A DNA stretch of 64,000 bases from Ktedonobacterales bacterium (lineage in GTDB: Bacteria; Chloroflexota; Ktedonobacteria; Ktedonobacterales; DATBGS01), in contig DATBHW010000042.1 in the NCBI GenBank assembly GCA_036557285.1, positions 59,412 to 123,411 of the forward strand. Reading direction: 5' to 3'. Positions 11,679 through 61,943 of this stretch are shown here, piece after piece. The notes beneath the pieces were generated by a model. It was not told where the DNA came from. It was given only the letters and a program-made list of their open reading frames with translations, and ran no database searches. How positions within the stretch are numbered: the first letter of the stretch is position 1; each line of letters opens with the position of its first letter. The position numbers were made by a program, and so were the translations under genes.

Positions 11679-13214
11679 CTAAACAGTAAGGGCCTCGCGT
11701 TTTTGCTGCTGCGGCGTCTCCCAGTTGCGGGAGCGATCCACCGCCCGCTTCCAGTTCGCGTATAGTGCTTCGCGCTGATCTTTGCCCATGCGCGGCTCAA
11801 ACACCTGATCGAGCGCCCAGTGTTCGATCAGTTCCTGCTGATTACGCCAGAAGCCCGTCGCCAGGCCAGCCAGATACGCCGCGCCCTGCGCCGTCGTCTC
11901 GGCGACCCTGGGCCGCTCCACTGGCACGCCCAGAATATCCGCCTGGAATTGCAGCAGCAGATTATTGGCAACCGCGCCGCCATCCACGCGCAGCCGCCGC
12001 AGCGGCTCCTGGCTGTCCAGCGTCATCACTTCAGCCACGTCGCGGGTCTGATAGGCTATCGCTTCCAGCGTGGCTCTGGCGATATGCCCGGCAGTCGTCC
12101 CGCGTGTCAGGCCGACAATGGCGCCGCGCGCCCGGTCATCCCAATAGGGCGCGCCCAGCCCCACAAAAGCCGGAACCAGATAGACCCCGCCATTATCCGG
12201 CACAGTACTCGCCAGACCCTCCACCTGGCTGCTGCTCTTGATAATCCCCAGGCCGTCGCGCAGCCACTGCACCGCTGCCCCGGTGATAAAAATGCTCCCC
12301 TCCAGCGCGTAGGTCACATTGGGTCTGGCCGCATCCCCCAACCCCCAGGCGATGGTTGTCAGCAAGCCGCTGGGAGAAGGGACCGGCTTGCCGCCCGTGT
12401 TCATCAACATAAAGGAGCCAGTACCATAGGTATTTTTAGCCTGGCCCGCTTCATAACACACCTGGCCGAACGTAGCCGCCTGCTGATCGCCCGCGTCCCC
12501 GGCGATCTTGATCGGCCCACCAAAGAACTCCGAGGCCGCTTCTCCGTAGACGGCGCTCGATGGCATCACCTGCGGCAGCATCTGGCGTGGCACATCCAAT
12601 TCGTTGAGGATGACATCATCCCAATCCAACCTCTGGATGTTATAGAGCAGCGTGCGCGAAGCGTTAGAAAAGTCGGTGACATGCGCCTTGCCCTTCGTAA
12701 GCCGCCAGATCAAGAAGGTATCAACGGTGCCAAACAGAACCTCGCCCCGGCGGGCGCGTTCGCGCGCGCCCGGCACATGATCCAGAATCCATTTGACCTT
12801 CGTACCCGAAAAGTACGCATCTGTGACCAGGCCAGTGCGCGCCCGAATCTCTTTATCAAAGCCCTTCGCCTTCAGTTCATCGCAGATCGGCGCTGTCAGA
12901 CGGCTCTGCCAGACAATCGCGTTGAAGATCGGCCTGCCGGTATCGCGCTCCCACACAATCGTCGTTTCACGCTGATTGGTAATGCCAATCGCGGCAATAT
13001 CCGCAGCAGACGCGCCCGCGTTGTTTACCACCTGCCGCGCCACCTGAAGCTGCGAGTTCCAGATGTCCTCCGGGTCATGCTCGACCAGCCCTGGCCTGGG
13101 GTAAATCTGCGGAAACTCCTGCTGCGCCGTCTTCACAACAGCGCCATCGTGATTAAAAAGGATCGCGCGGGAACTGGTTGTACCCTGGTCCAGCGCCAAC
13201 ACATACTGAGGCAT
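11679..13214 (-). CDS. glpK: Glycerol kinase
   Basis: 511 aa. [48 protein letters not shown], a full-length FGGY/GlpK signature. Confidence 0.95.
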
Positions 13215-13346
13215 AACAAACCCTCCTGCTTCTCAGAATCTCTCAGCGCGCCAGCGATCAAGCTGGGCGCTTCGGAAATCCGGCAAGGAGTATGCCAGGG
13301 AGTATGCCTACGAGCAGCGCCGCTTTTCGTGAGCCTCGTCGGTGAG

Positions 13347-13370
13347 GCGCCCGGAAGGCGGCGCTATCAG
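13347..13370. repeat. Single REP unit (inverted orientation)
   Basis: GCGCCCGGAAGGCGGCGCTATCAG is the reverse-complement form of the GTAGCGCCGCC core. Confidence 0.6.
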
Positions 13371-13402
13371 CGGTATCCACAAGCATTCAAGAAGATCGGG
13401 TA

Positions 13403-13870
13403 TCACCCGACGATCTCAATGCTGGTGGCGTTGATGGTCCTGCCCTGACCAGTGCAGGAGCCAACGACGTAAATCTTGGAGCCGACGACAACGGCGCTTA
13501 CCGTAGCAGAATGACCATTCTGCGTGTAGCGAGTCCTTGAGTTGATGTGGATGGTGGCGGTGCTGCCATCCGACCTGGTAACGGTGATGGTCCTGCTGTT
13601 CACCTTTGAGACGACCAGTTCGCCATTACACTGGCCCGGCGTGCCTGGTCCGACAGTTGGCATCTGGCGGGTATCCACCCCGCCGGGCTTTGCGCCCTTT
13701 GCTGCCTGGACCTGGCTCGCGCCGAGCGTTGACCCCAGGAACGCGCCCATCCCCAGGGCAAGCGTCAATGCGAGGGCGATGCCCCCCCACCGAAGACGCC
13801 TGCGACCCCTCTGGCGTGGCGCAGGCGCCTGGGCAAACGAGGACACTGCTGGCTCTCCAAAGTCTTCCAT
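13403..13870 (-). CDS. Secreted/anchored hypothetical protein (DUF5666-like beta domain)
   Basis: An Arg-rich N-terminus is followed by the hydrophobic segment IALALTLALGMGAFLGSTLGA. The C-terminal pattern is TITVTRSDGSTATIHINSRTRYTQNG..VVGSKIYVVG. The family call comes from memory only. Confidence 0.55.
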   Translation of the reverse strand: MEDFGEPAVSSFAQAPAPRQRGRRRLRWGGIALALTLALGMGAFLGSTLGASQVQAAKGAKPGGVDTRQMPTVGPGTPGQCNGELVVSKVNSRTITVTRSDGSTATIHINSRTRYTQNGHSATVSAVVVGSKIYVVGSCTGQGRTINATSIEIVG

Positions 13871-47298: not shown

Positions 47299-47367
47299 GC
47301 TGGCACCGAATAAGGGTTGAGGGTTGGTCGGCAAGGATTGAGTCTGGAGGGGCAAGAGGAGAAAACA

Positions 47368-47802
47368 ATGCCGCGTGCTGGTTCGGCTTTTCGTCTCACA
47401 GAGCGACAATTCGCGCGACTTCAGGCCATCATCCAGTCAGAATATGCCGCCTTTGGCTGGCAATTGCCACTCTCGCAATTGGATATACTTGCCACCAGCG
47501 TGGCCCGCACCTGCGCGGGCATGAATGGATACTACAGCGAAGCCGGCGCCCGCCGGGTAGCGCGCACCTGGGCATGGCTGCGCGCGGATGTCTTCCCTGG
47601 CGACCCCCTTATTGCCTACACACAAGCCGTCATCGAGCGCGAGCGCCGCACCTGGAAACTCTCCGCGCTTGCCACCCATGATATGCGCCGCATGGCCCTG
47701 GATTCACTCTACTTTACTTATATCCATAAAGGCAGCTATTCCCTGAACGATGTCTGGGAAAATGCCCGAGCCTTCGCGCGCGGCGTCACGCCTGGCCGCT
47801 AG
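47368..47802 (+). CDS. Hypothetical protein
   Basis: AGAGGAG precedes the ATG at 47368 (MPRAGSAFRLTERQFARLQAIIQ...). No family recognised. Confidence 0.5.
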   Translation: MPRAGSAFRLTERQFARLQAIIQSEYAAFGWQLPLSQLDILATSVARTCAGMNGYYSEAGARRVARTWAWLRADVFPGDPLIAYTQAVIERERRTWKLSALATHDMRRMALDSLYFTYIHKGSYSLNDVWENARAFARGVTPGR

Positions 47803-47812
47803 AAGTAGGATA

Positions 47813-47870
47813 CCAGTTGCAGCGCCACCTTTCAGGCGATTTGCTACCTGAAAGGTGGCGCTGCAACTGG
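47813..47870. repeat. Perfect 24-bp inverted repeat (REP-variant hairpin) between convergent genes
   Basis: CCAGTTGCAGCGCCACCTTTCAGG, 10-nt loop, CCTGAAAGGTGGCGCTGCAACTGG. No flanking T-tract, so it is not a canonical intrinsic terminator. Confidence 0.85.
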
Positions 47871-47907
47871 TGAGCGCGCTGCCCATGCCGCATGCAGATT
47901 TACAGAA

Positions 47908-50229
47908 TCATATATTGCCGCTTGTATTGCCGCTGCCGTTATGAAGCGCCTGGAAAACGCGCTCCGGTGTCATCGGAATCTGCGTCACCCGCGCGCCAGT
48001 GGCATTGGCAATAGCGTTGGCAATCACAGCAGCCCCCGGAATGACTGGTGGCTCGCCAACGCCCTTCGCCCCAAAGGGACCATTCGACGAAGCCACCTCA
48101 ACCAGCATCGTATCAATCTTCGGCGCAACTCTCGCGCCCGGAATGGCATATTCCATGAAGCTGCTGTTCAATAACTGGCCCTGCTGATCGTAGAGCATCT
48201 GCTCGTAGAGCGCCCAGCCCAACCCCTGCACAATCCCGCCCATCATCTGCCCCTCCACTTCGGCAGGGTTGATAGCAAAGCCGACATCCTGCGCCGCCGC
48301 ATACTCCAGCACCGATGCCTGCCCAGTCTCAGAGTCCACCGCCACCCGTGCTACATGCGCTGTGAACATCGGCGCGCCACCTGTGATCGCCACCGAGCCA
48401 CGTCCAAAGACCGGCTCATAACGTGCGCCAAAGCTCATCGTCTGGGTAGCAATATCGCTGAGATCGATGCCCCGCGCAGCCGCGCCGCGCACCTGAACAC
48501 GCCCTGGCAGCAGTTCTAGATCGCCCGTCGCGGCTTCCAGCCTGTCTGCGGCAATGTCCAGAATCTGGCGGCGAGCATCTTCGGCGGCCTGTTTGACAGC
48601 AGCCCCAAGCGTATAGGTCACTTTGCTGCCGCCCGTTGCCCCCATAAACGGGGAGGCGTCGGTATCGGCATGCACCAGGCGAATTGATTCAGGAGACTGG
48701 TTCAGGATTTCAGCGGCAATCAGCTTCAGCGTCGTATCCGAGCCGGTAAGGTCCACCGACCCCACCACCAAGGTCAGCGTGCCATCACCATCCATACGGC
48801 AGGCAGCCGAAGCAGGCTCCAGACCACCGGGCCAGCCACCCACCGCCACACCGACCCCAATCTTGCGGCCCAGCGCGTCGGTCTCATTGGCGCGGCGATT
48901 CTTCCAGAGCGGATGCTCAGCAACCTTCTCCAGACATTGGCGCAGGCCAATCGCTGGAAAGGCCGGGCCGTCAGGCCGCTTATCGCCCTCGACAATCGCG
49001 TTGTGCAGGCGAAACTCCAGCGGGTCCAGCCCCAGCGCGTGCGCCAGAGCGTCCATATGTGATTCGATGGCAAAGGTCGCTTGTGGCGCGCCAGGCGCGC
49101 GATAAGCCCCTGATCCTGGCTTATGGGTAAGCACCTCATACCCGCGCAGGTCGAGATTGGGGCAGCGATAATAGCCGCCAACCATAATAGCCGCGATGCC
49201 AGCAGGCGCGCCAGGATACGCTCCGGCGTCAAAGACCAGCCGAGCCTGAAGCGCCGTTAGCGTGCCATCGCGTTTTGCCCCCGCCTTGATCGTAATGATG
49301 CTCTGTGGTGCAGGATTGCCCGCCAGAAAATCGTCGCTGCGCGTAAAGCTAAGCAGCACCGGCTTGCGCACCGCCACCGCCAGCGCAGCCACCAGCGGCT
49401 CCAGCAGAATAAACTTGCCGCCAAAACCACCACCTACCGGCATCGCCACCACCCGTATTTGATGCTCTGGAAGTTTGAGCGCGGCAGCAACCTCAGAGCG
49501 CGCGTAAAACATCGCCTGAGTGCTTGCCCACACCGTCACCTGGCCCAGCGGGTCTATCGCCGCTGCCACCGCCTGCGGTTCTATGTAGGTCTGATGAACC
49601 ATACTCGTGCGATAGGTCTCTTCCAGCACCACATCAGCCTCGCGGAATCCTTCTTCTACATCCCCGCGCTTGAAACGCGGATGAGAAGCAACATTGACGG
49701 AGAGGTCTTCTTTTTCGGCGTCCGCGTCCTCGGATTGCGCCACAGCAGCGTGCATCCCGGCTTCGGCATCGGCAGCCTCATGTGAAAGGTGCGGATGCAC
49801 AGGTGGCGCTCCAGGCAGCATAGCCACCAGCGGATCACTCACAGCGGCCAGCGGCTCGTAATCAATAGCCACCAGATCAGCCGCATCCTGGGCAACCGCC
49901 GGATCAGAAGCCAGGGCCATTGCTACCGGCTGCCCCCGGAACAGCACATAGTCATGAGCCAGCGGCGAGCGATGGCGCGAGGATTCATCCTCTCTGCTGC
50001 GGGTCATCGGCAGGTCATCAGCCGTCAGCACAGCAAAGACGCCAGGGAGCGCCAGCGCGGCGCTCTTATCAACGCTGCGAATGCGCGCGTGCGCATAGGG
50101 GCTGAGAATCGGGCGAGCATACAGCAGCCCATCAAGAGGGAGATCGGCGGTATAGCGGGTCTGCCCCGTGAGCTTTTCTGGCCCATCAACCCGGCGCACA
50201 GAATGTCCAAGGTAGGTATACTCTGGCAT
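47908..50229 (-). CDS. Xanthine-dehydrogenase-family molybdopterin-binding large subunit (aldehyde oxidase/CoxL-like)
   Basis: VRRVDGPEKLTGQTRYTADL, PVGGGFGGKF and GVGEPP. GAGGAA precedes the ATG at 50229. No [2Fe-2S] or FAD subunit gene is adjacent. Confidence 0.85.
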   Translation of the reverse strand: MPEYTYLGHSVRRVDGPEKLTGQTRYTADLPLDGLLYARPILSPYAHARIRSVDKSAALALPGVFAVLTADDLPMTRSREDESSRHRSPLAHDYVLFRGQPVAMALASDPAVAQDAADLVAIDYEPLAAVSDPLVAMLPGAPPVHPHLSHEAADAEAGMHAAVAQSEDADAEKEDLSVNVASHPRFKRGDVEEGFREADVVLEETYRTSMVHQTYIEPQAVAAAIDPLGQVTVWASTQAMFYARSEVAAALKLPEHQIRVVAMPVGGGFGGKFILLEPLVAALAVAVRKPVLLSFTRSDDFLAGNPAPQSIITIKAGAKRDGTLTALQARLVFDAGAYPGAPAGIAAIMVGGYYRCPNLDLRGYEVLTHKPGSGAYRAPGAPQATFAIESHMDALAHALGLDPLEFRLHNAIVEGDKRPDGPAFPAIGLRQCLEKVAEHPLWKNRRANETDALGRKIGVGVAVGGWPGGLEPASAACRMDGDGTLTLVVGSVDLTGSDTTLKLIAAEILNQSPESIRLVHADTDASPFMGATGGSKVTYTLGAAVKQAAEDARRQILDIAADRLEAATGDLELLPGRVQVRGAAARGIDLSDIATQTMSFGARYEPVFGRGSVAITGGAPMFTAHVARVAVDSETGQASVLEYAAAQDVGFAINPAEVEGQMMGGIVQGLGWALYEQMLYDQQGQLLNSSFMEYAIPGARVAPKIDTMLVEVASSNGPFGAKGVGEPPVIPGAAVIANAIANATGARVTQIPMTPERVFQALHNGSGNTSGNI

Positions 50230-50587
50230 GTTGCGCTTGTTCCTCACTTTACCAAAAATTGCCTGTCTTTTTTCCTTGACAGAAGGCATTGTAGTCCATG
50301 ACTTCGGGTGATCGCTAGCAGTTCATTCTACTGCAAGAACTGACACTATTGCCAGCGTTTCTTGCGGTTGCCCGTAAATGGGCGCAATCTGGCCGCCAAA
50401 TTACCCCCTTGTGCTTGCTCAGTAGCTCTGCTAAGATTTTGCCCGAAGCAGACGCGCAAGCCTCGGACGGACCTGGGGGGCAGCGCGCGGTCAGGGCGTG
50501 GAAAAGGATCACGCGCCGCCTTGAGCGCGGCACGCTTCGCCTCTATTGAACATACTGTTGCCTGCAACGCAGGAAAGGAATGCGGCA

Positions 50588-52279
50588 ATGGCCAGCAAAA
50601 ATCCAGAGAAGGATGCACAGGAAAGCACAGCGGATACCAAGATAGAGGTAGCCGTGCTGGCGGATAACAGCGGAGCGGAGGGGCAGGCCGAAGTGGTCGT
50701 GGATGAGGCTGGGGAGCATGCGGAGCAGCTAGAAATAGATCGTCCTGAGGCGACGGCAGAGGAGGCAGCGAGCGCAGAGAGCGGTGAGCAGGAAGCGCCC
50801 GATGAAGCTGAAGCCAACGTCCTCGTTGTCAGCGCCGCTGCAAGTGGCGAAGACGAACAATCAGAAACATTAGCGGAACTCGCGGACGAACTGCCCGCCG
50901 ATGCGTCTTCAGACGAAGAATCCCATGCTGAACCCGAAGGCGCTGAAGCGGAACCCAGCGAGGCCGCTGAAGCAACAGAGGAACAGGCTGCCGAAGAGCC
51001 AGCAGCCGAAGAAGCAGCAGCGGTAGCTGAGGCAGAGAGCGCAGCCGCAGAGGCGGAAGCGCCCAGCATGGAAGCTGAAGCCGCCGAAGCGAGCGAAGAA
51101 GCAGCAGCGGCTGAGGAAGCTGCCGAAGCAGTGGCTGAAGTATCTGCTATGGAGGAAGCCCCTGCGGAAGCTGAGGCTGCCGAAGTTGAAGCGGAAGCCC
51201 CTGCGGCAGAAGCCGAAGCGGCTGAAGCAGCCGAGGAGGCGCCTGCGGCTGAGGAGGCTGAAGCCGTTGCGGCGGCTGAAGAAACTCCTGCGGCTGAGGA
51301 GGCCGAAGCTCCTGTCTCCGAAACCGAAGCGGCTGCCGAGGCTGCAACACTGGAGGAAGCGGCTGAAGTCTTTGAGGAGGCCATCGCAGAAATCAGGGAA
51401 GCGATAGAGGCAGCCGAGGAGGCACACGCCGAGGCCGAAGCGGAAGCCGCCCCGGAAGCAGCGGCTGAGATGGAAGCCGAGTCTGCCGAAGCAGCGGCTG
51501 AAGTCGAGGAGGCAGCCGAGGCTGTAGCCGAAACTGAGGAAGAAGCCGAAGCAGTAGCCGAGGTCGAAGCTGAGGAAGAAGCCGAAGAGGTAGCCGAGGT
51601 AACTGCTGAAGCCGAAGCCATCGCTGAAGAAACAGCAGTGGTAGCTGAGGCCGAAGCCGTCGCCGAGGCCGCTCAAGAGGCAATAGAGGAGGCCGAGGTC
51701 CAGACCGAAGCCGCCCAAGAAGCAGAGGCCGAAGCTGAGGTTCCTTCAGCAGAGGCAGAGGAAGCAGAGGCAGTGGCCGAAGCGCCCGCAGCGGAAGAAG
51801 CCGCCGCTGAAGCCGAACCTGCCGCTGAGGCAGAGGAAGCGCCAGCAGAAGAGCCTGCCCCCGCAGCAGCGAGCGCAGAGGCCGCGCGAGAACCCGTCAC
51901 GATTGTTGCCCATCAATTGATCGCCGTCGGGCCGAACCGCGAACCCCGTATTCTGCTGCACCGTTATCACGGGCGAACCGGTCAGCCCCTGGGTGGAGCG
52001 CCTATGCTCTGGGATACCGCCCGCGCCGCTCGCTTCTTCCATCAAAAAGCGGTCAGCGGCCAGGCAAGCGGGCATGAAACGCTCGTGCATATCCCTGAAG
52101 AGCAAACTGTCGTCATCATGGCTGGTGATGGCGACATCATCAGCGTCCATGAAGAGGTTGCCAGAGCCATCTTCCCAGCCATCGCGCAGCATCGCGCGTC
52201 CTGGGCAGAAGAGCAATGGGACATCCCAGCCGAATATCACCAGGCATCCCCCGCCCTCTCATTCGATGATTGGGCATAA
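50588..52279 (+). CDS. Polyanionic Glu/Ala-rich low-complexity protein with a globular C-terminal domain of about 130 aa
   Basis: ATG at 50588 after GGAAAGGAA. Roughly 430 residues are almost only E, A, plus some V/P/T/S (..AEAEAAEVEAEAPAAEAEAAEAAEEAPAAEE..). After the first ~50 residues I see only one basic residue (R in EIREAI). The C-terminal part begins EPVTIVAHQLIAVGPNREPRILLHRYHGRTG... Confidence 0.7.
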   Translation: MASKNPEKDAQESTADTKIEVAVLADNSGAEGQAEVVVDEAGEHAEQLEIDRPEATAEEAASAESGEQEAPDEAEANVLVVSAAASGEDEQSETLAELADELPADASSDEESHAEPEGAEAEPSEAAEATEEQAAEEPAAEEAAAVAEAESAAAEAEAPSMEAEAAEASEEAAAAEEAAEAVAEVSAMEEAPAEAEAAEVEAEAPAAEAEAAEAAEEAPAAEEAEAVAAAEETPAAEEAEAPVSETEAAAEAATLEEAAEVFEEAIAEIREAIEAAEEAHAEAEAEAAPEAAAEMEAESAEAAAEVEEAAEAVAETEEEAEAVAEVEAEEEAEEVAEVTAEAEAIAEETAVVAEAEAVAEAAQEAIEEAEVQTEAAQEAEAEAEVPSAEAEEAEAVAEAPAAEEAAAEAEPAAEAEEAPAEEPAPAAASAEAAREPVTIVAHQLIAVGPNREPRILLHRYHGRTGQPLGGAPMLWDTARAARFFHQKAVSGQASGHETLVHIPEEQTVVIMAGDGDIISVHEEVARAIFPAIAQHRASWAEEQWDIPAEYHQASPALSFDDWA

Positions 52280-52339: not shown

Positions 52340-52656
52340 TCTTGCCTCCTGCAAAGCACAACGGCGTGCTATACGCAGCGCAAAAGAGAAGCACCAAGTC
52401 GGTGAGGAGCAGGAAAGCGCCCGGCGGCTCTATGCCCAACGGACGCCGATAGATGAGAGCTTCGGCTGATAAGACACCGGGGCGCAACCTCGCGCCAGGG
52501 ACATCTATGTCGTACTGCGCTGCGGCCCAAACACACCGCACCAGACGAGCATGAGGCAGAAACGCCTGCCCAACCGGGCGACGAAGCGCCACCGGCGCTC
52601 AGTTGTAAGAAGCGTATCTCTATCCAGAACCAACCGGAATGAAACAGAAGACAAAA
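52340..52656 (+). ncRNA. Candidate structured noncoding RNA or long 3' UTR (unclassified)
   Basis: About 320 nt with no credible ORF on either strand. Many local hairpins: AGCACaacggcGUGCU, AGCuucgGCU, GGCGCaaccucGCGCC, AGCGCCaccGGCGCU. It ends at a strong terminator hairpin. Confidence 0.25.
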
Positions 52657-52699
52657 ACGGCAGCAGTGTTTCCACGCCCGCACTGCTGCCGTCTTTTTG
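52657..52699 (+). terminator. Strong bidirectional-looking intrinsic terminator
   Basis: ACGGCAGCAGTG, 12-nt loop, CACTGCTGCCGT, then CTTTTTG. An A-run (ACAAAAA) lies upstream. Confidence 0.65.
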
Positions 52700-52713
52700 C
52701 AAGTAATTTCTTC

Positions 52714-52743
52714 TTGACGTTTTGTTGGCCGGTGTGATAGAGT
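52714..52743 (+). promoter_or_regulatory. Candidate promoter of the aspS leader
   Basis: TTGACG (52714-52719), 18-nt spacer, TAGAGT (52738-52743), about 20 nt before Stem I. Confidence 0.4.
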
Positions 52744-52762: not shown

Positions 52763-53147
52763 GGCTGTGATGGGGACGGGTTCGGAGGCTACACAGCGTT
52801 CAGAGAGCGATGTCCTGGCTGAGAACAGCGCCGCTGCTCCTCTCGAATGACCCCCCTGAGCCAACCAGTGAACTGGCTTAGAGCGCCTCACACAACCTCC
52901 ACACGAGCAGGGGCGGGGTTGTAGCGCCGTCCTGCCAGGCGGCAGGGGTGGGGCCAACCGCCGGTTTTGTGAGGCATTCTTAGCTGCGCCATAGTAACTG
53001 GCTTCGGCAGCGCCCGTTATCGCGCGATGGTTTCTTGCTTCCCCTTGAACAGAAGCATCAACCGCTGAGGCCCCACGTTGGGGCAAATGGTGGTGGTACC
53101 ACGATACGGCTGTACGCCCTCGTCCTCCAAACGGACGAGGGCTTTTT
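52763..53147 (+). promoter_or_regulatory. T-box riboswitch leader of aspS, interrupted by a MITE
   Basis: Stem I spans 52763-52862. It has a K-turn (GGC-UGU-GA-UGGGG ... CCCC-U-GA-GCC), an AG bulge AGAGAG at 52802-52807, a distal loop CCUGGCUGAGA and specifier-loop sequence GAAUGACC. The T-box sequence AAAUGGUGGUGGUACCACG is at 53085-53103. The terminator GCCCUCGUCC/GGACGAGGGC plus U5 is at 53116-53147. Confidence 0.7.
52877..52983. repeat. 107-bp MITE-like element, copy 3 (inside the T-box leader)
   Basis: CTTAGAGCGCCTCACACAACC...GGTTTTGTGAGGCATTCTTAG. It starts 15 nt after Stem I. Confidence 0.85.
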
Positions 53148-53289: not shown

Positions 53290-54597
53290 ATGCAGCGTAT
53301 TCGCACAACTGAGGCTCGCGCACACCAGGGCGAGCGCGTTTCTGTCGCTGGCTGGCTCCATTCACTCCGACGCCTGGGAGCCGTGAACTTTCTCGTCATT
53401 CGTGACGGCTGGGGGACCATCCAGGCCGTCGCAGAGAGCGAAGCTGAATTAGCGCCGCTCCTGGCAGAAGAGGCAGGCGTAGAAACTGTTCTGGCAATCG
53501 AAGGGCTGGTTGTCAGCAATGCGCAGGCTCCTGGCGGCTGTGAATTGCACGAATTGTCCATCAAGCTGATCGCGCCGGTCACTGAAGCGCCTCCGGTAAC
53601 GATCAGCAAGCGCGCCGTCAAGGCCAGCCAGAGTACCATCCTCGACCATGCCGTCGTCACAAACCGCCATCCAGAGCGGCGCGCCATCCTTCAACTCGGC
53701 GCAGGCGTCCTGGCTGGCTTCCGGGCTGCCCTGGGAGAGCAAGGCTTTACCGAGATACAAACGCCCAAGATCGTTGCCTCCGCCACCGAAAGCGGCGCAA
53801 ACGTCTTTTGCCTCGACTATTTTGGGCGGCCAGCCTATCTGGCACAAAGTCCGCAGTTTTACAAGCAGATCATGGTGGGCGTCTTCGAGCGCGTCTTCGA
53901 GGTTGGCCCAGTCTTTCGCGCAGAGCCACATGATACCGCGCGCCATATCAACGAATATGTGAGCCTGGATGTGGAGTTTGGCTTTATCGAAAGCCATCAT
54001 ACCGTGATGGCGCTTTTACGCGACCTGCTGGCGAGCATCTTTACAACATTGGCACAGCGCCATGCTGACGAGCTAGCCCTACTGGAGACGAAGCTGCCCG
54101 CTGTGCCTGTCGAGATTCCCAGCATTCACTTCAGCGACGCCCAGGAACTCATCTACCAGCGTCATGGCGCCGACGTGCGTGGCGAACCCGACCTTTCGCC
54201 CCAGGACGAGCGCCGACTTGGCGAATGGGCGCGTGAACAATTCGGCAGCGATTTCCTGTATGTGATCGGCTACCCGATGCGCAAACGCCCATTCTATACA
54301 CATCCAGACCCATCGCGTCCAGAATATTCCAACTCATTCGACTTGATCTTCCGGGGCATGGAACTGGCTACAGGTGGGCAGCGCCTGCATCGCTACGCCG
54401 ATTACATTGCGGCGCTGGAGGCAGCGCATTTGCCCATCGAACCATTCGAGGCGTATATCGAAGCGTTCCGTTACGGCATGCCGCCACATGGAGGGTTTGC
54501 CTTCGGCCTGGAGCGTTTGTTGATGCAGCTTACTGGCGTCTCAAACATCAAGCTGGCTGCACTCTTCCCCCGCGACCTTGCGCGGCTTACACCCTAA
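53290..54597 (+). CDS. aspS: Aspartate--tRNA ligase, type 2 (archaeal/eukaryotic-like; possibly non-discriminating)
   Basis: 435 aa. OB-fold N-terminus VSVAGWLHSLRRLGAVNFLVIRD. Motif 2: VGPVFRAEPHDTARHINEY. Motif 3: GGFAFGLERL. GGGAGGG RBS. Confidence 0.9.
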   Translation: MQRIRTTEARAHQGERVSVAGWLHSLRRLGAVNFLVIRDGWGTIQAVAESEAELAPLLAEEAGVETVLAIEGLVVSNAQAPGGCELHELSIKLIAPVTEAPPVTISKRAVKASQSTILDHAVVTNRHPERRAILQLGAGVLAGFRAALGEQGFTEIQTPKIVASATESGANVFCLDYFGRPAYLAQSPQFYKQIMVGVFERVFEVGPVFRAEPHDTARHINEYVSLDVEFGFIESHHTVMALLRDLLASIFTTLAQRHADELALLETKLPAVPVEIPSIHFSDAQELIYQRHGADVRGEPDLSPQDERRLGEWAREQFGSDFLYVIGYPMRKRPFYTHPDPSRPEYSNSFDLIFRGMELATGGQRLHRYADYIAALEAAHLPIEPFEAYIEAFRYGMPPHGGFAFGLERLLMQLTGVSNIKLAALFPRDLARLTP

Positions 54598-56173: not shown

Positions 56174-56956
56174 ATGGATGGTCCTAGCCCCCATATACTC
56201 AATGAGGATGATCTGGTCGCTGCTGCCTTAGACTCCGATGCTTTGACTGCTGAGGCCAGGCAGCATCTTGCCCAATGCCCGACCTGTGCCAAACAGGCTG
56301 CGTCATATCAACGATTCATGTCTGCGCTCACCTCCAAACTCTATCGTTGGGACTGCCCCACTACCCAGGAGATCAGCGACTACGCTGCGGGACGACTACG
56401 CGGCAAGCGCCGCCACACGCTCGCCCTGCATTTCAAACGCTGCCCACACTGCACCGAGGAACTGGAGATCAGTCGGCAATTCCTGAGTCCAGCCCCACAG
56501 GCAGCAGCTGCACCAGGCTTGCGATCCCCAGCAGCCAATCTTCAACCACTTCCCCCACGCCAACGCCTCGTAGCGCGGCTGCTGCCGCACCGCACGGCAG
56601 GCGCGGCGCTGGCAGGCATCCGTGGAAGCAGCAGCCAGGGCAACGAAGGCTGGCCTCGCCAATATCAATTCGATACGATCTCCCTCTCCCTGCATCGCGC
56701 TGTTCCGCCAGCAGGTGGAAGTGGCTCCATGCTGCTTGGCCTGATTTCACGCGCCGAGGCCCCGCCCGATGCGTTCAGCAACATAGAGATACATCTGCTC
56801 CTTTCAGATGCTCCAGATAAGCCGCCCCTTGCCACTGAACAGATTGACGATCTTGGCAACTTTGTCCTCAGCCCTGTCCCCACTGGCCGTTTCGACCTGC
56901 TTATTGTGCTGCCAGAGGGTGATCTGGTCATCGAAGGGCTTGAACTCAGTGGATGA
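56174..56956 (+). CDS. Soluble zinc-finger anti-sigma-like protein
   Basis: AAAGGAG RBS. Two H/C..CxxC units (HLAQCPTCAKQ and HFKRCPHCTEE). An Ala/Pro/Gln-rich linker and a C-terminal beta-sandwich-like segment (GNFVLSPVPTGRFDLLIVLPEGDLVIEG) follow. No TM segment. Confidence 0.65.
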   Translation: MDGPSPHILNEDDLVAAALDSDALTAEARQHLAQCPTCAKQAASYQRFMSALTSKLYRWDCPTTQEISDYAAGRLRGKRRHTLALHFKRCPHCTEELEISRQFLSPAPQAAAAPGLRSPAANLQPLPPRQRLVARLLPHRTAGAALAGIRGSSSQGNEGWPRQYQFDTISLSLHRAVPPAGGSGSMLLGLISRAEAPPDAFSNIEIHLLLSDAPDKPPLATEQIDDLGNFVLSPVPTGRFDLLIVLPEGDLVIEGLELSG

Positions 56957-56963
56957 ACCGTCA

Positions 56964-59900
56964 ATGAACGCTCACACATTTGTCTCTGGCCTGTTACCCT
57001 TGCAAGGGGAGGCCATCACACGCTATTTCGCAGAGCATGCTCCCGCAGCAGATGACCTGGACACCATCGCCCAACTCCTCAAAGACGAAGCCCAGGCCCA
57101 GGAGACCCGCGACCTGGAACAGTCGCTCATCATTGCCGATCAGCTATTGGCATTCGCTGATTGGACAGGCAGCCCTCGCCATCGTGCGCTGGGCCTGCTG
57201 GAGCGCGGCAACGTCCTCATGCTCCAGGGCCACCACCGCGAAGCCATCGACTGCTTCGATACCGCCGGAGCCGATTTCCTCAAGGCAGGCGATGAAATTG
57301 GCTGGGCGCGCACCAGAATAAGCTACCTTTTCTGCGCCTCGCGCATTGGCCTGGCTGAGCAAGCCCTTCAACATGTTGAGCGGGCACGCGAGGTTTTTCT
57401 CTCCCATGATGAGTATGGACGCGCCGCCGATCTGGAGACGAATCTGGCAATTGCCTTGTCAGGCGTTGGGCGTTACCAGGAAGCCCTGGCAGCCTATGAC
57501 CGAATTCTGCTGATCATTAGTTCCAGGGAAACGGGCGATATGCTGAGCCGCAAAGCACGGGTGCTCACAAACAAAGCATTTGTTTTAGAGATGCAGGGCG
57601 ATTTACACGGCGCTATCACCTGTCTTCAGGAAGCTCGCGCCATCTTTGCTGCACAGCAACAGCTCCGCGCAGGTGCCGCCGCTGATCTTAATCAGGCTTG
57701 GTTACGGGCGAGTCTGGGCCAATATAGCGCAGCCTTACATCTCTACCATCAGGCAAGGGAATATTATCAGCAGCATGCTATTCCCAACGCCCTCGCTGCT
57801 GTGAATGCCGATATGGCCCATTGCCTTTTGCGCCTGAATCGCCCAGTCGAAGCACTCAAACTGGCCGAAGAAGCGGTTGCCCTCTGTCAGACGTTGGATG
57901 AAACCTCGGAACTCGGCACCATGCTTGTCTATCTCGCACGAGCGCAGGCAGCTTGCAACAAACCTGAAGCAGCACTGCTGACACTGAAAGAAGCTCGTCG
58001 GCAGTTTGAAAGTGTTGGCAATCTTCCTTCAGCCGGGTTAGCAATACTCACGGTAGCTGAGCTTTTGATTCAGTCAAGAGACCAGCTAGCCCAGGCCCTC
58101 GAAAGTGCTAAAGAAGCGATGAGCATCTTCTATGCTCATCACATGGAACATTTAATTGCTGAAGCTCATCTGCTCCAGGGGCGGGCCTACGAACTATCAG
58201 ATAATGTCGTTCTGGCAGCAGAGCTAGGCAATAAAGCCCTGAAGGAAGCCCGGCAGGCTCACATTCCCTGGCTGGAATTTGGCTGTGAACTCCTGCTTGG
58301 CCGATTAATGCAGCGGCAAGGGAACCTGGAGGCAGCAGAGCAACACTATCAGGCCGCGCTCACCTTACTTGAAGGCTTGATGACCTGGCTCGTGCGCGAC
58401 CAGCGCAGCACGTTCTTGACCGACAAAGAAGATGTTTTTAGCGCCCTGATCAGCCTCTCGCTGAAGCGCAGCAACCCCAACAGGGCGCTGGAGTATCTGG
58501 AACGCATGAAATCCCAAGTGCTGCGCGAATATCTGACGCGCTCCTCTGAGATTCGGCTCAAAGCAAGCGATCCCGAAGAAGCGCGCCTCTTGCAAGAACT
58601 GCAACGGCTGCGCCAGGAACTGCATGTCTCTAGCGCCCAAGTAGTTCTAACGGAAAAGACTGTCCAAAGCTCCACACTTGCCGAGCAAGCAGCAGCAGCC
58701 AGAGGAGCGCCAACCGATGTCATTGAGACAGAAAAAGCCCAACAAAACACCCTCCTGAATCAGCAGAAGGCCGAGCAGCGCCGCCGCGAGCAGGCCATCA
58801 GCGAATTATTAGAGCGGGCTTATCTCCAACACGAGAGTTCCCGCTTTACCCTCTTTGCCACTGGGCAAGGAGGGCATCAGGCCCATAGCCCACTTTCAAT
58901 TGAACACCTGTCTGACCTGATGCCAGAAGGCAGCGTCCTGCTGGAATACTTCACTCAAGGCGATGATCTGCTCATCTTTACCCTTCATGCCCGGCATCGC
59001 CGCACTGAAATAACGCATGTTCCTGGCGCGGCCAATCGGATCAGCCGGATGCTCCCGCTTTTTCGTACCAATGTTGATCTGGTCGCTCAGCATCTCATGA
59101 GCCAGCCCGCCGGGGCAAACATTGATCCCATGCTCACCGTCAATATCCAGGGCCTTGCCCGCAGACTCTATGATCTCCTGCTGAAACCCATTGAAATCCA
59201 TATACCAACCGATGGACGGCTCATCATCGTGCCTTATGGCCTGCTCCATCTGCTGCCCTTTCATGCGCTGCACAGCGAGGTGGGCTACCTGATCGAGCGG
59301 TGCGAAGTGGCCTATCTGCCCGCTGCTGCCATGCTCGCGCTCCAGGAGAGCCAGCGCGCAGCACTACCGCGCACCAGCGATGGGCAGGGGAACATTCTGG
59401 TGCTGGGGCACTCTCATGGCGGGCTGCTGCCCCACGCGCTGCACGAGGCACACAGCGTCGCACATTTATTGGGAGCAAGCCCTTTCCTCGACGAGCAGGC
59501 AACTATTGAGCGATTGAGCGGCGCAGCCGGGAGCTACAACATCATCCACATTGCTGCGCATGGGCAGAATCGCGCCGACGCGCCCGACTTCTCCTATCTG
59601 CAACTGGCCGATGGGCAACTAAGTATGATTGATGTCTTCAACCTGGATTTACCCGCTGAGCTTATTACCTTGAGCGGCTGCGAAACCGGGCTGGTTGTCA
59701 TCGGTGGCGGCGATGAACTTCTGGGATTGGGGCGCGGCTTTCTTTACGCCGGAGCGCGCTCGCTTCTGATGAGCCTCTGGCGCGTGGAAGATGCCAGCAC
59801 CGCTCTATTGATGGAACGCTTTTATCAAGGGCTTCTGGCCGGGCAGTCACGGGCAGGCGCGCTGCGTGGCGCCCAGCAGGCGCTTCTGGCAGACGCTCGT

Positions 59901-59987
59901 GCTGGCAAAAGCCCGGCTGCCTGGCAGCATCCGTATTTCTGGGCGCCCTTCCGCCTGCTCGGCGCCTCCGACCCCGTCGCACTCTAA
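56964..59987 (+). CDS. TPR-repeat + CHAT-domain (caspase-like) protease
   Basis: ATG at 56964, 8 nt after the upstream stop. About 650 aa of TPR-like helical repeats and a coiled-coil segment are followed by a CHAT domain. The His-Cys dyad sits in IIHIAAHG (His codon 59559-59561) and LSGCETG (Cys codon 59679-59681). Confidence 0.85.
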   Translation: MNAHTFVSGLLPLQGEAITRYFAEHAPAADDLDTIAQLLKDEAQAQETRDLEQSLIIADQLLAFADWTGSPRHRALGLLERGNVLMLQGHHREAIDCFDTAGADFLKAGDEIGWARTRISYLFCASRIGLAEQALQHVERAREVFLSHDEYGRAADLETNLAIALSGVGRYQEALAAYDRILLIISSRETGDMLSRKARVLTNKAFVLEMQGDLHGAITCLQEARAIFAAQQQLRAGAAADLNQAWLRASLGQYSAALHLYHQAREYYQQHAIPNALAAVNADMAHCLLRLNRPVEALKLAEEAVALCQTLDETSELGTMLVYLARAQAACNKPEAALLTLKEARRQFESVGNLPSAGLAILTVAELLIQSRDQLAQALESAKEAMSIFYAHHMEHLIAEAHLLQGRAYELSDNVVLAAELGNKALKEARQAHIPWLEFGCELLLGRLMQRQGNLEAAEQHYQAALTLLEGLMTWLVRDQRSTFLTDKEDVFSALISLSLKRSNPNRALEYLERMKSQVLREYLTRSSEIRLKASDPEEARLLQELQRLRQELHVSSAQVVLTEKTVQSSTLAEQAAAARGAPTDVIETEKAQQNTLLNQQKAEQRRREQAISELLERAYLQHESSRFTLFATGQGGHQAHSPLSIEHLSDLMPEGSVLLEYFTQGDDLLIFTLHARHRRTEITHVPGAANRISRMLPLFRTNVDLVAQHLMSQPAGANIDPMLTVNIQGLARRLYDLLLKPIEIHIPTDGRLIIVPYGLLHLLPFHALHSEVGYLIERCEVAYLPAAAMLALQESQRAALPRTSDGQGNILVLGHSHGGLLPHALHEAHSVAHLLGASPFLDEQATIERLSGAAGSYNIIHIAAHGQNRADAPDFSYLQLADGQLSMIDVFNLDLPAELITLSGCETGLVVIGGGDELLGLGRGFLYAGARSLLMSLWRVEDASTALLMERFYQGLLAGQSRAGALRGAQQALLADARAGKSPAAWQHPYFWAPFRLLGASDPVAL

Positions 59988-60107
59988 GCAGCGCCTTCAT
60001 CTGCAAATAGCTGTTTACAAATCGTTTTCTTTGATAGGTGGCTTACAGAGACCGACACCCCGGCGCTATGTGAATGCAACCAGGTTCCTTGTATCAGGAG
60101 GACTTTT

Positions 60108-61943
60108 ATGGTGAATCGCCCCAGACCGCCAGCGCATCCAGCTTTTAAAGGCGCTCTCCCAGCCCTCGATGGGCGCATCATTGAGCCGCTCTATTGGATT
60201 CCGAACGAACTGGCCGTGACGGTTCGTTCTCCAATGGCGCCAACGCTGGAGCAGCTACAAACCCTCAGCGCCCGCCTGAAACGGCTGCTCAGCGAAGTCG
60301 GCATCAGCGTTGTTCCTTTTTACGCTGGCGGCCAGCGACTCTCACGCCAGGGCGCAAAGCGTGATCTCTCAGAGCCGGAAGAAACAGTTACCGAGCAAAA
60401 GTATGTTCAGGTGGGGATAGAGGTTGGACGGATTGGACGGACCTCTGCTCAAACCCTGGTGGAAGTTGAGCTTGAGGAGCAGTGGCAGGCTGAGTACAGG
60501 CGTCGTCCCAACCGACTTCCCGGCGTTCATTCCTTTGGCAATGGCCCAACAGGCATTGCTGTCGTCTTTTATACCCTGCTCACTCATCGCCAGCGCCGAG
60601 GAGACCAGAGGGACAGCGTACAGATAGCGGTTGATCACATCAACCAGAACCTGCACCTGCGCAACCCTGGAGAAAATGCGCTGCGCGTCCTGGCCGCCAT
60701 GCCGAACTGGCTGACATATGGCTCAGGGCAAATTCCAGAGCCAGCCACTGGACCAGGCGCGCCACCGATGTGGTCCCCAGACGCGCCCCCTCCCAGCGGC
60801 TCCTGGGTTTTTAAGCAGCCGCACTTTGCCGCTCTGGTTCAGCAAAACAAGCAGCAGCCAGCGGGACACGTTACCGTCATCATTCTGGATACCGCGCTCG
60901 GAGATAACAACGCGGTCATCACACGCGCCCAGCAGGTTCCAGATTACGCAAACAATCTGTTGCTGAAGCAGATTGTGGGCGATCTCAATCAAGGCAAGAT
61001 GCTTATTGATACGAGCATTCCCACTTATATGCTGCCTGGCAACCAGTTCGGCGCGGGCCAGGATGACCTGGGGCGGCCTTTCGTCTATAATATGGTTGAT
61101 CATGGCCTCTTCATCGCGGGCATCATTTACAGCATCGCCCCACAAGCGGAGATAAAACTGGTGCGCACCCAGAATCCCTATGGCGCGGGAGATATGAACG
61201 TTTTCTTGCATGCTCTCGACGAAGTGGGCCAGCGCCAGGACACACAACAGATCGTGTTGAATCTCAGCATGGGCGCGCTGCCACCCCTGGAGGAACTCCA
61301 TCAAATCTGGTTTGGCTCTGGCTGCTGCTGCGATGCGCCGCCTTTTGCTGATGCTTTGCAAACCCTCGAAAAATTGCATCTGGGGCTGCGTATTGCCATT
61401 CGCTCACTGGTGGAAAAAGGGGTCGTGATCGTTGCCGCCGCTGGCAACGACTCGATAGGTAAGAATCCGCCACATGGGCCACGCTATCCGGCTCGCTATG
61501 AGGACGTGCTGGGGGTTGCAGCTGTGAACCGCCACGAACAAGCCGCCGCATATTCCAACCAGGCCAATGTAGACCATTGGGGCAGCGGCATTGCCACCTT
61601 TGGCGGCGAAGAGCCGAACGACGACAGCGATACGCTCGCCTGGTATCTGGGTACATCGCCGAATCAACCTGGCCCACCCGATGCCGTCCATAGCCTCTAT
61701 CTGAATCCAACCTATCCGCCGCTCAATGCAGATGATTCTGGCGCTGGCGGCTCAAACAACTCTGGCTGGGCCTGGTGGTCGGGGACATCGTTTGCCACCG
61801 CCGTCGCCAGTGGGCTGGCAGCGCATCATGTGCTGGCTGGCATGCACGGGCAGCAGGTCATCCAGGCCATCTTAAATGGTCTGGCTTCCGCTCCCTACTC
61901 CCAACGGCTACAGGCTCCTATTCTGGAAGTAGCGGAAGAATAG
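60108..61943 (+). CDS. S8-family subtilisin-like serine peptidase with an unknown N-terminal domain of about 250 aa and no signal peptide
   Basis: AGGAGG RBS. Triad: VIILDTALGD (Asp codon 60887-60889), DHGLFIAGII (His codon 61101-61103), GTSFATAVASG (Ser codon 61788-61790). Oxyanion NLSMGA. Confidence 0.85.
   Translation: MVNRPRPPAHPAFKGALPALDGRIIEPLYWIPNELAVTVRSPMAPTLEQLQTLSARLKRLLSEVGISVVPFYAGGQRLSRQGAKRDLSEPEETVTEQKYVQVGIEVGRIGRTSAQTLVEVELEEQWQAEYRRRPNRLPGVHSFGNGPTGIAVVFYTLLTHRQRRGDQRDSVQIAVDHINQNLHLRNPGENALRVLAAMPNWLTYGSGQIPEPATGPGAPPMWSPDAPPPSGSWVFKQPHFAALVQQNKQQPAGHVTVIILDTALGDNNAVITRAQQVPDYANNLLLKQIVGDLNQGKMLIDTSIPTYMLPGNQFGAGQDDLGRPFVYNMVDHGLFIAGIIYSIAPQAEIKLVRTQNPYGAGDMNVFLHALDEVGQRQDTQQIVLNLSMGALPPLEELHQIWFGSGCCCDAPPFADALQTLEKLHLGLRIAIRSLVEKGVVIVAAAGNDSIGKNPPHGPRYPARYEDVLGVAAVNRHEQAAAYSNQANVDHWGSGIATFGGEEPNDDSDTLAWYLGTSPNQPGPPDAVHSLYLNPTYPPLNADDSGAGGSNNSGWAWWSGTSFATAVASGLAAHHVLAGMHGQQVIQAILNGLASAPYSQRLQAPILEVAEE

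Follow-up and report, generated by a model that had tools for sequence, protein, structure and literature searches.

A polyanionic Glu/Ala-rich protein family of Ktedonobacterales with conserved end regions and a candidate regulatory leader

To our knowledge, long, purely polyanionic disordered proteins are well studied in eukaryotes and hardly known in bacteria. Prothymosin-alpha is a polyanion that binds basic proteins without folding, and the ribosomal stalk P-proteins of archaea and eukaryotes possess a flexible Ala/Glu-rich arm and an acidic/hydrophobic C-terminal peptide that recruits partners. PopZ, the polar hub protein of Alphaproteobacteria, has a client-binding N-terminus and a C-terminal assembly domain, between which lies an acidic disordered linker of ~80 aa with much Pro, Glu, and Asp. 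The acidic tip of SSB, a short conserved acidic/aromatic C-terminal peptide, and the tail of HMGB1 follow the same logic as the acidic C-terminal tail of Hfq. Tethered, acidic, and disordered, the Hfq tail acts as a mimic of nucleic acid in competition for basic surfaces (PMC5606850). Bacillus subtilis RNA polymerase delta displaces RNA and DNA from the polymerase by charge, which requires both its folded docking domain and its unstructured polyanionic region (PMC5424795), and MARCKS consists of 30.7% Ala and 16% Glu (PMC5424795). Here we describe a gene for an acidic Glu/Ala-rich protein in a 64,000-nucleotide stretch of a Ktedonobacterales genome (contig DATBHW010000042.1, positions 59,412 to 123,411, forward strand; "the window"). 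Judged by comparison with its relatives, the product bears the signature of a bulk-polyelectrolyte region tethered by specific modules.

The gene was found where the original prediction had placed it. It begins at an ATG and is enclosed in a longer open reading frame (ORF) listed at 50546-52279 (+ strand); upstream of the ATG, from the in-frame TTG at 50546, there is no protein-level conservation in relatives. The whole 563-aa protein is 32% Ala and 26% Glu, with a net charge of about -148 at pH 7. Within residues 53 to 433 (381 aa), Glu and Ala account for 73.8% of the residues, and 129 Glu and 5 Asp are accompanied by no Lys, a single Arg (R270), and 2 His, giving a net charge of -133. In all six frames of the 64-kb window, this gene is the sole ORF with an 80-aa stretch of net acidic fraction of at least 0.2, so the composition is not a product of chance. 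A tract of ~430 residues beginning near residue 50 and containing a single basic residue had been predicted. Its polyanionic Glu/Ala character and its only basic residue are as described, while its length was generous: the Lys/Arg-poor span covers 381 aa and the strictly Glu/Ala part ~333 aa (residues 101 to 433), residues 50 to 100 instead being part of a more varied, conserved N-terminal region. The features of the protein are as follows.

50588-52279, + strand: coding sequence of the acidic Glu/Ala protein, 563 aa, ATG at 50588, stop codon ending at 52279
50588-50887, + strand: acidic N-terminal region, residues 1-100, net charge -25, mean identity 59% among six orthologues
50888-51886, + strand: polyanionic Glu/Ala tract, residues 101-433, with 117 Glu, 139 Ala, 0 Lys, and 1 Arg, net charge about -118, net charge per residue (NCPR) -0.35
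51638-51739, + strand: conserved island within the tract, residues 351-384, VVAEAxAxAEAAQEAxEEAEVQxEA, mean identity 70%, level with the C-terminal domain
51887-52276, + strand: C-terminal domain, residues 434-563, net charge -5, identity 60-81% in nine relatives
52256-52276, + strand: extreme C-terminal peptide LSFDDWA-COOH, with S, F, D, W, and A invariant in 10 of 10 sequences and D or Q at one position as the sole variation

The tract was compared among six full-length orthologues of 563 (window), 624, 634, 638, 692, and 744 aa from Ktedonobacterales genomes and metagenomes. Its length, which the original prediction had proposed to compare, differs between relatives, ranging from 334 to 514 aa (334, 396, 411, at least 377 in a locus partly masked by Ns, 462, and 514 aa), and the NCPR values in the same order are -0.35, -0.36, -0.35, -0.36, -0.34, and -0.33. 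The 2,488 pooled tract residues include 853 Glu and 24 Asp, but only 1 Lys and 6 Arg. A Glu codon needs only one G-to-A transition to become a Lys codon; among 1,117 mismatched alignment columns containing Glu, the partner residue is Lys or Arg in 2. Mean identity of the tract as a whole is 51%, against 68 to 70% or more for the C-terminal domain, the island, and the tip, and its pairwise alignment scores are mostly reproduced by shuffled sequences (window against L003, 659 real versus 459 shuffled; L003 against L004, 536 versus 514, z = 1.6), which indicates that positional homology decays fast as composition is held. At the level of the aligned sequences, the comparison shows selection on the charge density of the tract and on the near-absence of Lys and Arg, not on its sequence or length. 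The six species thus amount to a natural experiment: tract lengths differ by more than 50%, yet charge per residue keeps within 10% and lysine is all but excluded. This pattern shows that selection acts on a bulk physical property and not on sequence.

The tract had also been called imperfectly repetitive without being a clean tandem repeat, a description that agrees with three kinds of evidence. Tandem Repeats Finder reported only short, weak local arrays of 2 to 5 copies with 65 to 91% match, which make up a minority of the tract, so that the defined unit and many copies of a tandem-repeat protein are lacking. No residue periodicity was consistently above a shuffle null across the three orthologues analyzed, the heptad (3.5/7) and 3.6-residue periods included; the hydrophobic heptad pattern of a coiled coil is thus absent from these three. 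Codon usage in the window tract is mixed, with 69 GAA and 48 GAG codons for Glu and all four Ala codons in use. Nor does the tract resemble a single alpha-helix of the ER/K type, in which Glu alternates with Lys or Arg to form salt bridges from i to i+4, Lys and Arg being nearly absent, at 0 Lys and 1 to 2 Arg per tract in this comparison. The number of Pro residues per tract varies from 11 to 39, and the window tract contains one aromatic residue. Against this background the island at residues 351 to 384 stands out. It lacks Pro and Gly, displays a hydrophobic Val/Ile stripe, and was found in every sequence spanning that part of the tract, including the L002 and L007 fragments; it may form a helix-like or binding motif.

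Both ends of the protein are conserved in sequence. The N-terminal ~100 aa, which on their sequence form a conserved region distinct from the tract, contain the short motifs SENPEMDAQE, VEVAVL, EHAEQLEID, EAEANVLVV, and ETLAELA, and are predicted to be disordered (AlphaFold2 predicted local distance difference test [pLDDT] <50). A conserved-looking domain had been noted at the C-terminus, and the last 130 aa indeed behave as one, with invariant motifs that include GDGDxIxVHExVA, FPxIAxxR, and a Trp. An AlphaFold2 model of this domain alone reached a pLDDT of 80 and a predicted template modeling score of 0.76, with the order b-b-b-a-b-b-b-a (b, strand; a, helix). In the same model the invariant SFD[DQ]WA tip has a pLDDT of <50, and this flexible tip may be a docking peptide. 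The full-length model is of low confidence (pLDDT 59) and leaves disordered both the Pro-rich stretches and residues 1 to 136. No signal peptide or transmembrane segment was seen in the 563-aa protein, as judged from a maximum Kyte-Doolittle 19-residue average of 0.86 and an acidic N-terminus and without a dedicated signal-peptide predictor; from the lack of a hydrophobic segment we infer a cytoplasmic location. The prediction of a real gene for a polyanionic tract joined to a small domain therefore holds, though it missed the N-terminal region, the island, and the invariant C-terminal peptide.

Protein searches on the billion scale yielded nothing but fragments of the family. With the C-terminal 130 aa as query, a word-indexed search among 5.8 billion protein clusters returned one fragment, and an exhaustive phmmer search of 1.84 billion representatives returned three true matches, all of them fragments; in one (P0002) an acidic Glu/Ala stretch precedes the C-terminal domain. 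A scan of GTDB (one genome per species) found four loci, all in metagenome-assembled genomes labeled Ktedonobacterales, with 66 to 81% identity, and a metagenome scan with the invariant leader pattern (see below) added two full-length copies. Three additional N-terminal fragments are present in metagenomes. The Glu/Ala tract systematically interrupts assemblies: of the copies in databases, most are N- or C-terminal fragments whose sequence stops within it (L001, L002, L007, L008, and L010), and one genome copy contains a run of Ns inside it (L005, ~5480-5580). The fragmentary state of the copies explains the lack of a family model or annotation. As far as these sequences reach, the family is an orphan restricted to the soil bacteria of the Ktedonobacterales (phylum Chloroflexota).

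The reading frame is maintained throughout the family. The sense frame, of 563 to 744 codons, runs its whole length without a stop in each of the six full-length orthologues, and no other frame does so. Each antisense frame contains 3 to 12 stops, and the longest antisense open stretch (195 to 503 codons) shifts in frame and length between species and ends inside the tract; the antisense Ser/Ala frame, whose conservation the original prediction had named as a ground for refutation, is thus not conserved. Indels among the orthologues are all in frame, and no frameshift occurs in the six species. Between the window and L003, the C-terminal domain has 50 substitutions at the third codon position versus 9 at the second, a comparison that shows the pattern of purifying selection. 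Third-position substitutions dominate inside the tract too, where they do not discriminate because the antisense Ser/Ala frame shares the wobble position of the sense frame; stop counts were used there instead. By these comparisons of sequence, the gene is shown to be real and protein coding.

Signals for expression are conserved upstream of the gene, in a stretch whose features are as follows.

50409-50437, + strand: candidate promoter with -35 TTGTGC (50409-50414), a 17-nt spacer ending in TG (extended -10), and -10 TAAGAT (50432-50437); hexamers and TG invariant in seven loci
50443-50540, + strand: structured 5' leader of ~98 nt, with conservation and covariation in seven loci
50485-50516, + strand: leader hairpin with a covarying stem and a 14- to 15-nt loop beginning with invariant GGGCGUGGAA
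50561-50580, + strand: small hairpin CCUGC-aac-GCAGG (50561-50573), its 3' end overlapping the Shine-Dalgarno sequence GGAAAGGAA (50572-50580); stem invariant in seven loci, with no covariation information

The ~220 nt 5' of the ATG have a mean column identity of 82% in the seven loci, above that of the coding sequence, while the remaining intergenic region is unalignable. The TTGTGC and TG-n-TAAGAT elements probably constitute an extended -10 promoter, although a simple promoter scanner made no call here, the -35 hexamer matching at 3 of 6 positions. The ribosome-binding site, which had been described as reasonable, is invariant except for one base in one of the seven loci and is followed by the ATG 7 nt downstream. 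Compensatory double changes occur at 4 of the 8 pairs of the leader hairpin, with 94.6% of cells paired, and 1 of 500 shuffles was as good; these counts are biased because the hairpin was derived by eye from the same sequences. Inspection of the alignment showed that the L010 and L012 variants disrupt another register, seen in the minimum-free-energy fold, and rescue the chosen one. A three-way-junction model of the leader is 93% paired, and the G-U pairs fit the + strand only. With promoter, Shine-Dalgarno sequence, and structured leader all conserved, the upstream region as read from sequence supports transcription and regulated translation of the acidic gene. Frameshifts in relatives, a conserved antisense frame, and missing expression signals had been named beforehand as grounds for refutation, and on all three counts the result favors the gene.

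No Rfam family matched the leader: a search over 12 kb gave nothing at E ≤ 0.1, and one over 321 nt gave only noise at E ≤ 10. A covariance model of the leader (R1) found it solely upstream of the acidic gene in the 178 kb searched, with no second copy, which makes it a candidate new cis-regulatory RNA. A T-box was considered for the leader, the GGGCGUGGAA loop loosely recalling the T-box core, and was rejected: there is no covariance-model match, and a Glu/Ala-rich product would not fit the logic of T-box regulation.

Searches for a known family or fold were similarly unproductive. There was no meaningful match to the acidic protein family in Pfam, NCBIfam, PADLOC, or PDB sequences by single-sequence or profile searches, and Foldseek with the C-terminal domain found nothing at E < 0.001 or TM > 0.5 in PDB and BFVD. 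A profile of ten C-terminal domains retrieved from the 5.8 billion clusters five fragments, all of the same family, and nothing else. Three candidate relatives were rejected. DUF7012 (PF22792) matched one of nine family members at 14 bits (E = 0.051), the gathering cutoff being 27 bits; the match to a WD40 protein (P0005, E = 6.6e-4) is a false positive due to low complexity; and a Cellulomonas locus found by tblastn (L006) encodes a Fic protein in which only 29 residues, past the Fic core, are similar (hhalign probability 50%). The family itself gave no Pfam Fic match and does not qualify as Fic/DOC, which is defined by the core HxFx(D/E)GNGRxxR and the Fic fold. The HARE-HTH domain of RpoE had no Pfam or NCBIfam match in nine of nine members, DUF2497, the oligomerization domain of PopZ, had no Pfam match, and literature searches returned no description of the acidic protein family.

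The acidic gene is transcribed divergently from an orphan molybdo-enzyme gene, as the original prediction had it. The neighbor (47908-50289, - strand) encodes a Mo-binding large subunit of the xanthine dehydrogenase/aldehyde oxidase family without an adjoining gene for an Fe-S ([2Fe-2S]) or FAD partner. This lone arrangement recurs in five of the five loci that show the upstream flank, namely, L003, L004, and L005 (by Pfam) and L009 and L012 (by 80 to 84% identity). The order conserved in these loci is the divergent Mo subunit, the acidic gene, an optional Thg1-like gene, a T-box leader, and the aspartyl-tRNA synthetase (AspRS) gene. The other neighbors, an alpha/beta hydrolase, a methyltransferase, and a histidine phosphatase, point to no pathway.

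Several further observations concern this neighborhood. The T-box leader (RF00230; 52758-53130, + strand) falls short of the gathering score of 93, at 56 bits (E = 2.6e-10), and lies directly 5' of the gene for class II AspRS (53290-54597); it is accompanied by a promoter-like site at 52714-52743 and a terminator-like hairpin with a T-run at 53116-53142. The Thg1-like gene (256 aa; tRNA-His guanylyltransferase family) stands between the acidic gene and AspRS in L003 (10890-11660) and L005, and a same-sized ORF, a candidate for it, occupies that position in L012. It is cleanly absent from the window, with a breakpoint near 52710, and no ORF of that size is found there in L004 or L009. The ~135 nt before the breakpoint (window ~52575-52710) are conserved with equal tblastx scores in all frames and are thus non-coding. 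The Mo-enzyme gene, at its 3' end, faces a convergent 161-aa ORF (47317-47802, + strand), and the long hairpin between them at 47801-47882, which gives weak miRNA-precursor matches on both strands, probably acts as a terminator in both directions. Farther away, a cluster at 56174-61943 encodes a zf-HC2 (anti-sigma-like) protein, a 1,059-aa TPR-CHAT protein, and an S8 subtilase and may be a signaling or protease module. The only tRNA gene in the window, tRNA-Glu(UUC) (12761-12842, - strand), lies inside two overlapping long ORFs (11679-13214, - strand, and 11820-13448, + strand), at least part of each of which is therefore spurious.

What might such a protein do? Polypeptides with an absolute NCPR above ~0.35 behave as expanded polyelectrolytes, and a chain of NCPR about -0.35 with hardly any opposite charge is expected to bind counter-ions strongly. 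A fixed charge density at free length and sequence, as seen in the alignments, favors bulk-electrostatic roles in general, without choosing among mimic, buffer, bristle, and scaffold. Our preferred reading, tentative and drawn by analogy with RNA polymerase delta and the Hfq tails, which we consider possible without being confident of it, is a docked polyanion: the protein would shield cationic surfaces or contend for them with nucleic acids or polyphosphate. The C-terminal domain, the SFD[DQ]WA tip, or both would dock the protein onto a partner or assemble it. The polyanionic chain would then act through bulk electrostatics and excluded volume, occupying or shielding cationic surfaces, namely, basic nucleic-acid-binding proteins and their counter-ions, and would compete with DNA, RNA, or polyphosphate, keeping them off the site of the protein. 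The island and the N-terminal motifs may supply specific contacts, and the gene-specific structured 5' leader would control expression.

Several points weigh against a docked polyanion. The C-terminal domain is mildly acidic and no obvious nucleic-acid binder. In the full-length AlphaFold2 model, residues 434 to 490 are modeled differently from the domain-only run, so that only the second half of the domain (b-b-b-a) is reproducible, and helices are drawn at residues 139 to 198 and 245 to 383 with a pLDDT of 75 to 90, more in keeping with a rod than with a coil. Synteny is of little functional weight because the genomes are closely related, the neighboring proteins being 75 to 88% identical across loci; the most divergent homologue, L007, has different downstream genes. 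Finally, the present data do not separate a docked polyanion from cation buffering or condensate scaffolding.

Cation buffering itself is unlikely. It would have the ~120 to 180 carboxylates of each molecule bind Mg2+, Ca2+, K+, or polyamines in the manner of calsequestrin, with the leader sensing the ion. The extreme, conserved carboxylate density at free length, the dedicated structured leader, and the invariant DGD, His, and Glu residues of the C-terminal domain would all suit a reservoir of this kind, but it would have no need for the N-terminal motifs, the island, the folded domain, or the terminal peptide. The protein shows no known ion-binding motif or family match, and none of the known Mg2+, Mn2+, or NiCo riboswitches of Rfam was matched by the leader.

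We are likewise doubtful of a PopZ-like scaffold of a condensate or hub, in which a terminal oligomerization domain and client motifs would be separated by an acidic linker that tunes material properties. The three-part layout with conserved ends and a middle conserved in composition only fits such a scaffold, as does a linker that varies in length at fixed charge density. There is, however, no homology to PopZ or DUF2497, and a net charge of -148 without cationic or aromatic stickers argues against self-association lacking a polycationic partner.

A structural spacer, in which long Ala/Glu alpha-helices would set a fixed distance between the two ends of the protein or associate as an Ala-rich coiled coil, is rather improbable and is disfavored by the tests. 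It draws on the modeled helices and on a 96-residue run free of Pro and Gly in the window tract. AlphaFold2 often draws helices for conditionally disordered Ala/Glu sequences, though, and neither Pro content nor Pro spacing is conserved (L004 has 33 Pro and a longest Pro/Gly-free run of 51). With Lys and Arg nearly absent, no i to i+4 salt bridges can form; there is no heptad or 3.6-residue periodicity, and a length that varies by 180 residues keeps no fixed distance. For these reasons we do not take the helices as evidence for a rod, even if Ala and Glu are helix formers (PMC5424795).

Less probable still is a stress protectant or solubilizer, a highly charged, heat-stable disordered protein of the Hero or LEA type that would shield other proteins in desiccation, heat, or sporulation. 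The composition and predicted disorder of the acidic protein are compatible with such a role, and Ktedonobacteria are mycelial spore formers of harsh soils. This would leave the folded domain, the invariant tip, and the gene-specific leader unexplained; no stress genes occur in the neighborhood, and the family is far too narrow for a general role. That there is no functional protein, the ORF being a spurious product of GC-rich low-complexity DNA or the antisense Ser/Ala frame the real gene, is disfavored to the point of being effectively refuted: low-complexity GCN/GAR DNA does leave long open stretches on both strands, and the third-position excess of the tract does not by itself separate the two frames, but only the sense frame runs unbroken from a conserved N-terminus to a conserved C-terminal domain in six species, antisense stretches vary and stop within the tract, indels are in frame, and promoter, Shine-Dalgarno sequence, and ATG are conserved.

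The protein is experimentally tractable, since it comes with a folded handle, a candidate docking peptide, and a structured leader RNA of its own, and the family could reveal a bacterial use of protein polyelectrolytes beside DNA, RNA, and polyphosphate. A bolder proposal, which we put forward as an unlikely one, is a dedicated "protein polyanion" under riboswitch-like control, a bacterial counterpart of prothymosin-alpha or polyphosphate. Charge density would be the sole selected property of its middle 330 to 510 residues. A new fold and a terminal docking peptide would serve as its anchors, and in the large mycelial cells of Ktedonobacteria its task would be to organize basic proteins of the nucleoid, the ribosome, or RNA polymerase, or the counter-ions of these proteins. 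If this were true, the leader would represent a new class of ligand- or protein-sensing RNA. The family also illustrates why such genes are missed, since the tract breaks metagenome assemblies and leaves almost every database copy a fragment.

The family belongs to no described family, and the general kind to which it can be assigned is that of an acidic disordered region tethered to a folded module. DNA mimics such as Ocr and ArdA share with it carboxylate-rich surfaces that imitate the DNA backbone, but they are folded, have precisely spaced charges, and are borne by mobile elements; the acidic protein is of low complexity, chromosomal, and without a PADLOC match to defense or anti-defense systems. 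Prothymosin-alpha and MARCKS are alike in composition; neither is homologous or has a folded domain, MARCKS contains a basic effector segment, and the present setting is the bacterial cytoplasm. The stalk P-proteins are not homologous either: their terminal peptide adjoins the flexible arm, the one here a folded domain, and the tract exceeds the arm more than 10-fold in length. With PopZ the protein shares three parts and a linker conserved in composition rather than sequence, yet there is no sequence relationship, and the PopZ linker measures only ~80 aa.

Closer in logic are Hfq, SSB, and HMGB1, which also have a tethered acidic segment, and the short acidic and aromatic C-terminal peptide recalls the SSB tip. 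Their tails, however, measure tens of residues and regulate their own basic core; here the segment comprises hundreds of residues, and the domain is not basic. RNA polymerase delta (RpoE) resembles the protein in joining a small folded domain to a long polyanionic disordered region, here with a net charge of about -118 next to a domain of 130 aa. This is a mechanistic resemblance and not membership: there is no homology, the acidic part is N-terminal here (the order being reversed), the tract is 4 to 6 times longer and rich in Ala/Glu instead of Asp/Glu, and there are extra conserved N-terminal motifs. Relative to the known kind, what is new is the scale of 330 to 510 residues, the Ala/Glu composition with almost no basic residues, a fixed charge density at free length, a domain of no recognizable family, and a private structured leader.

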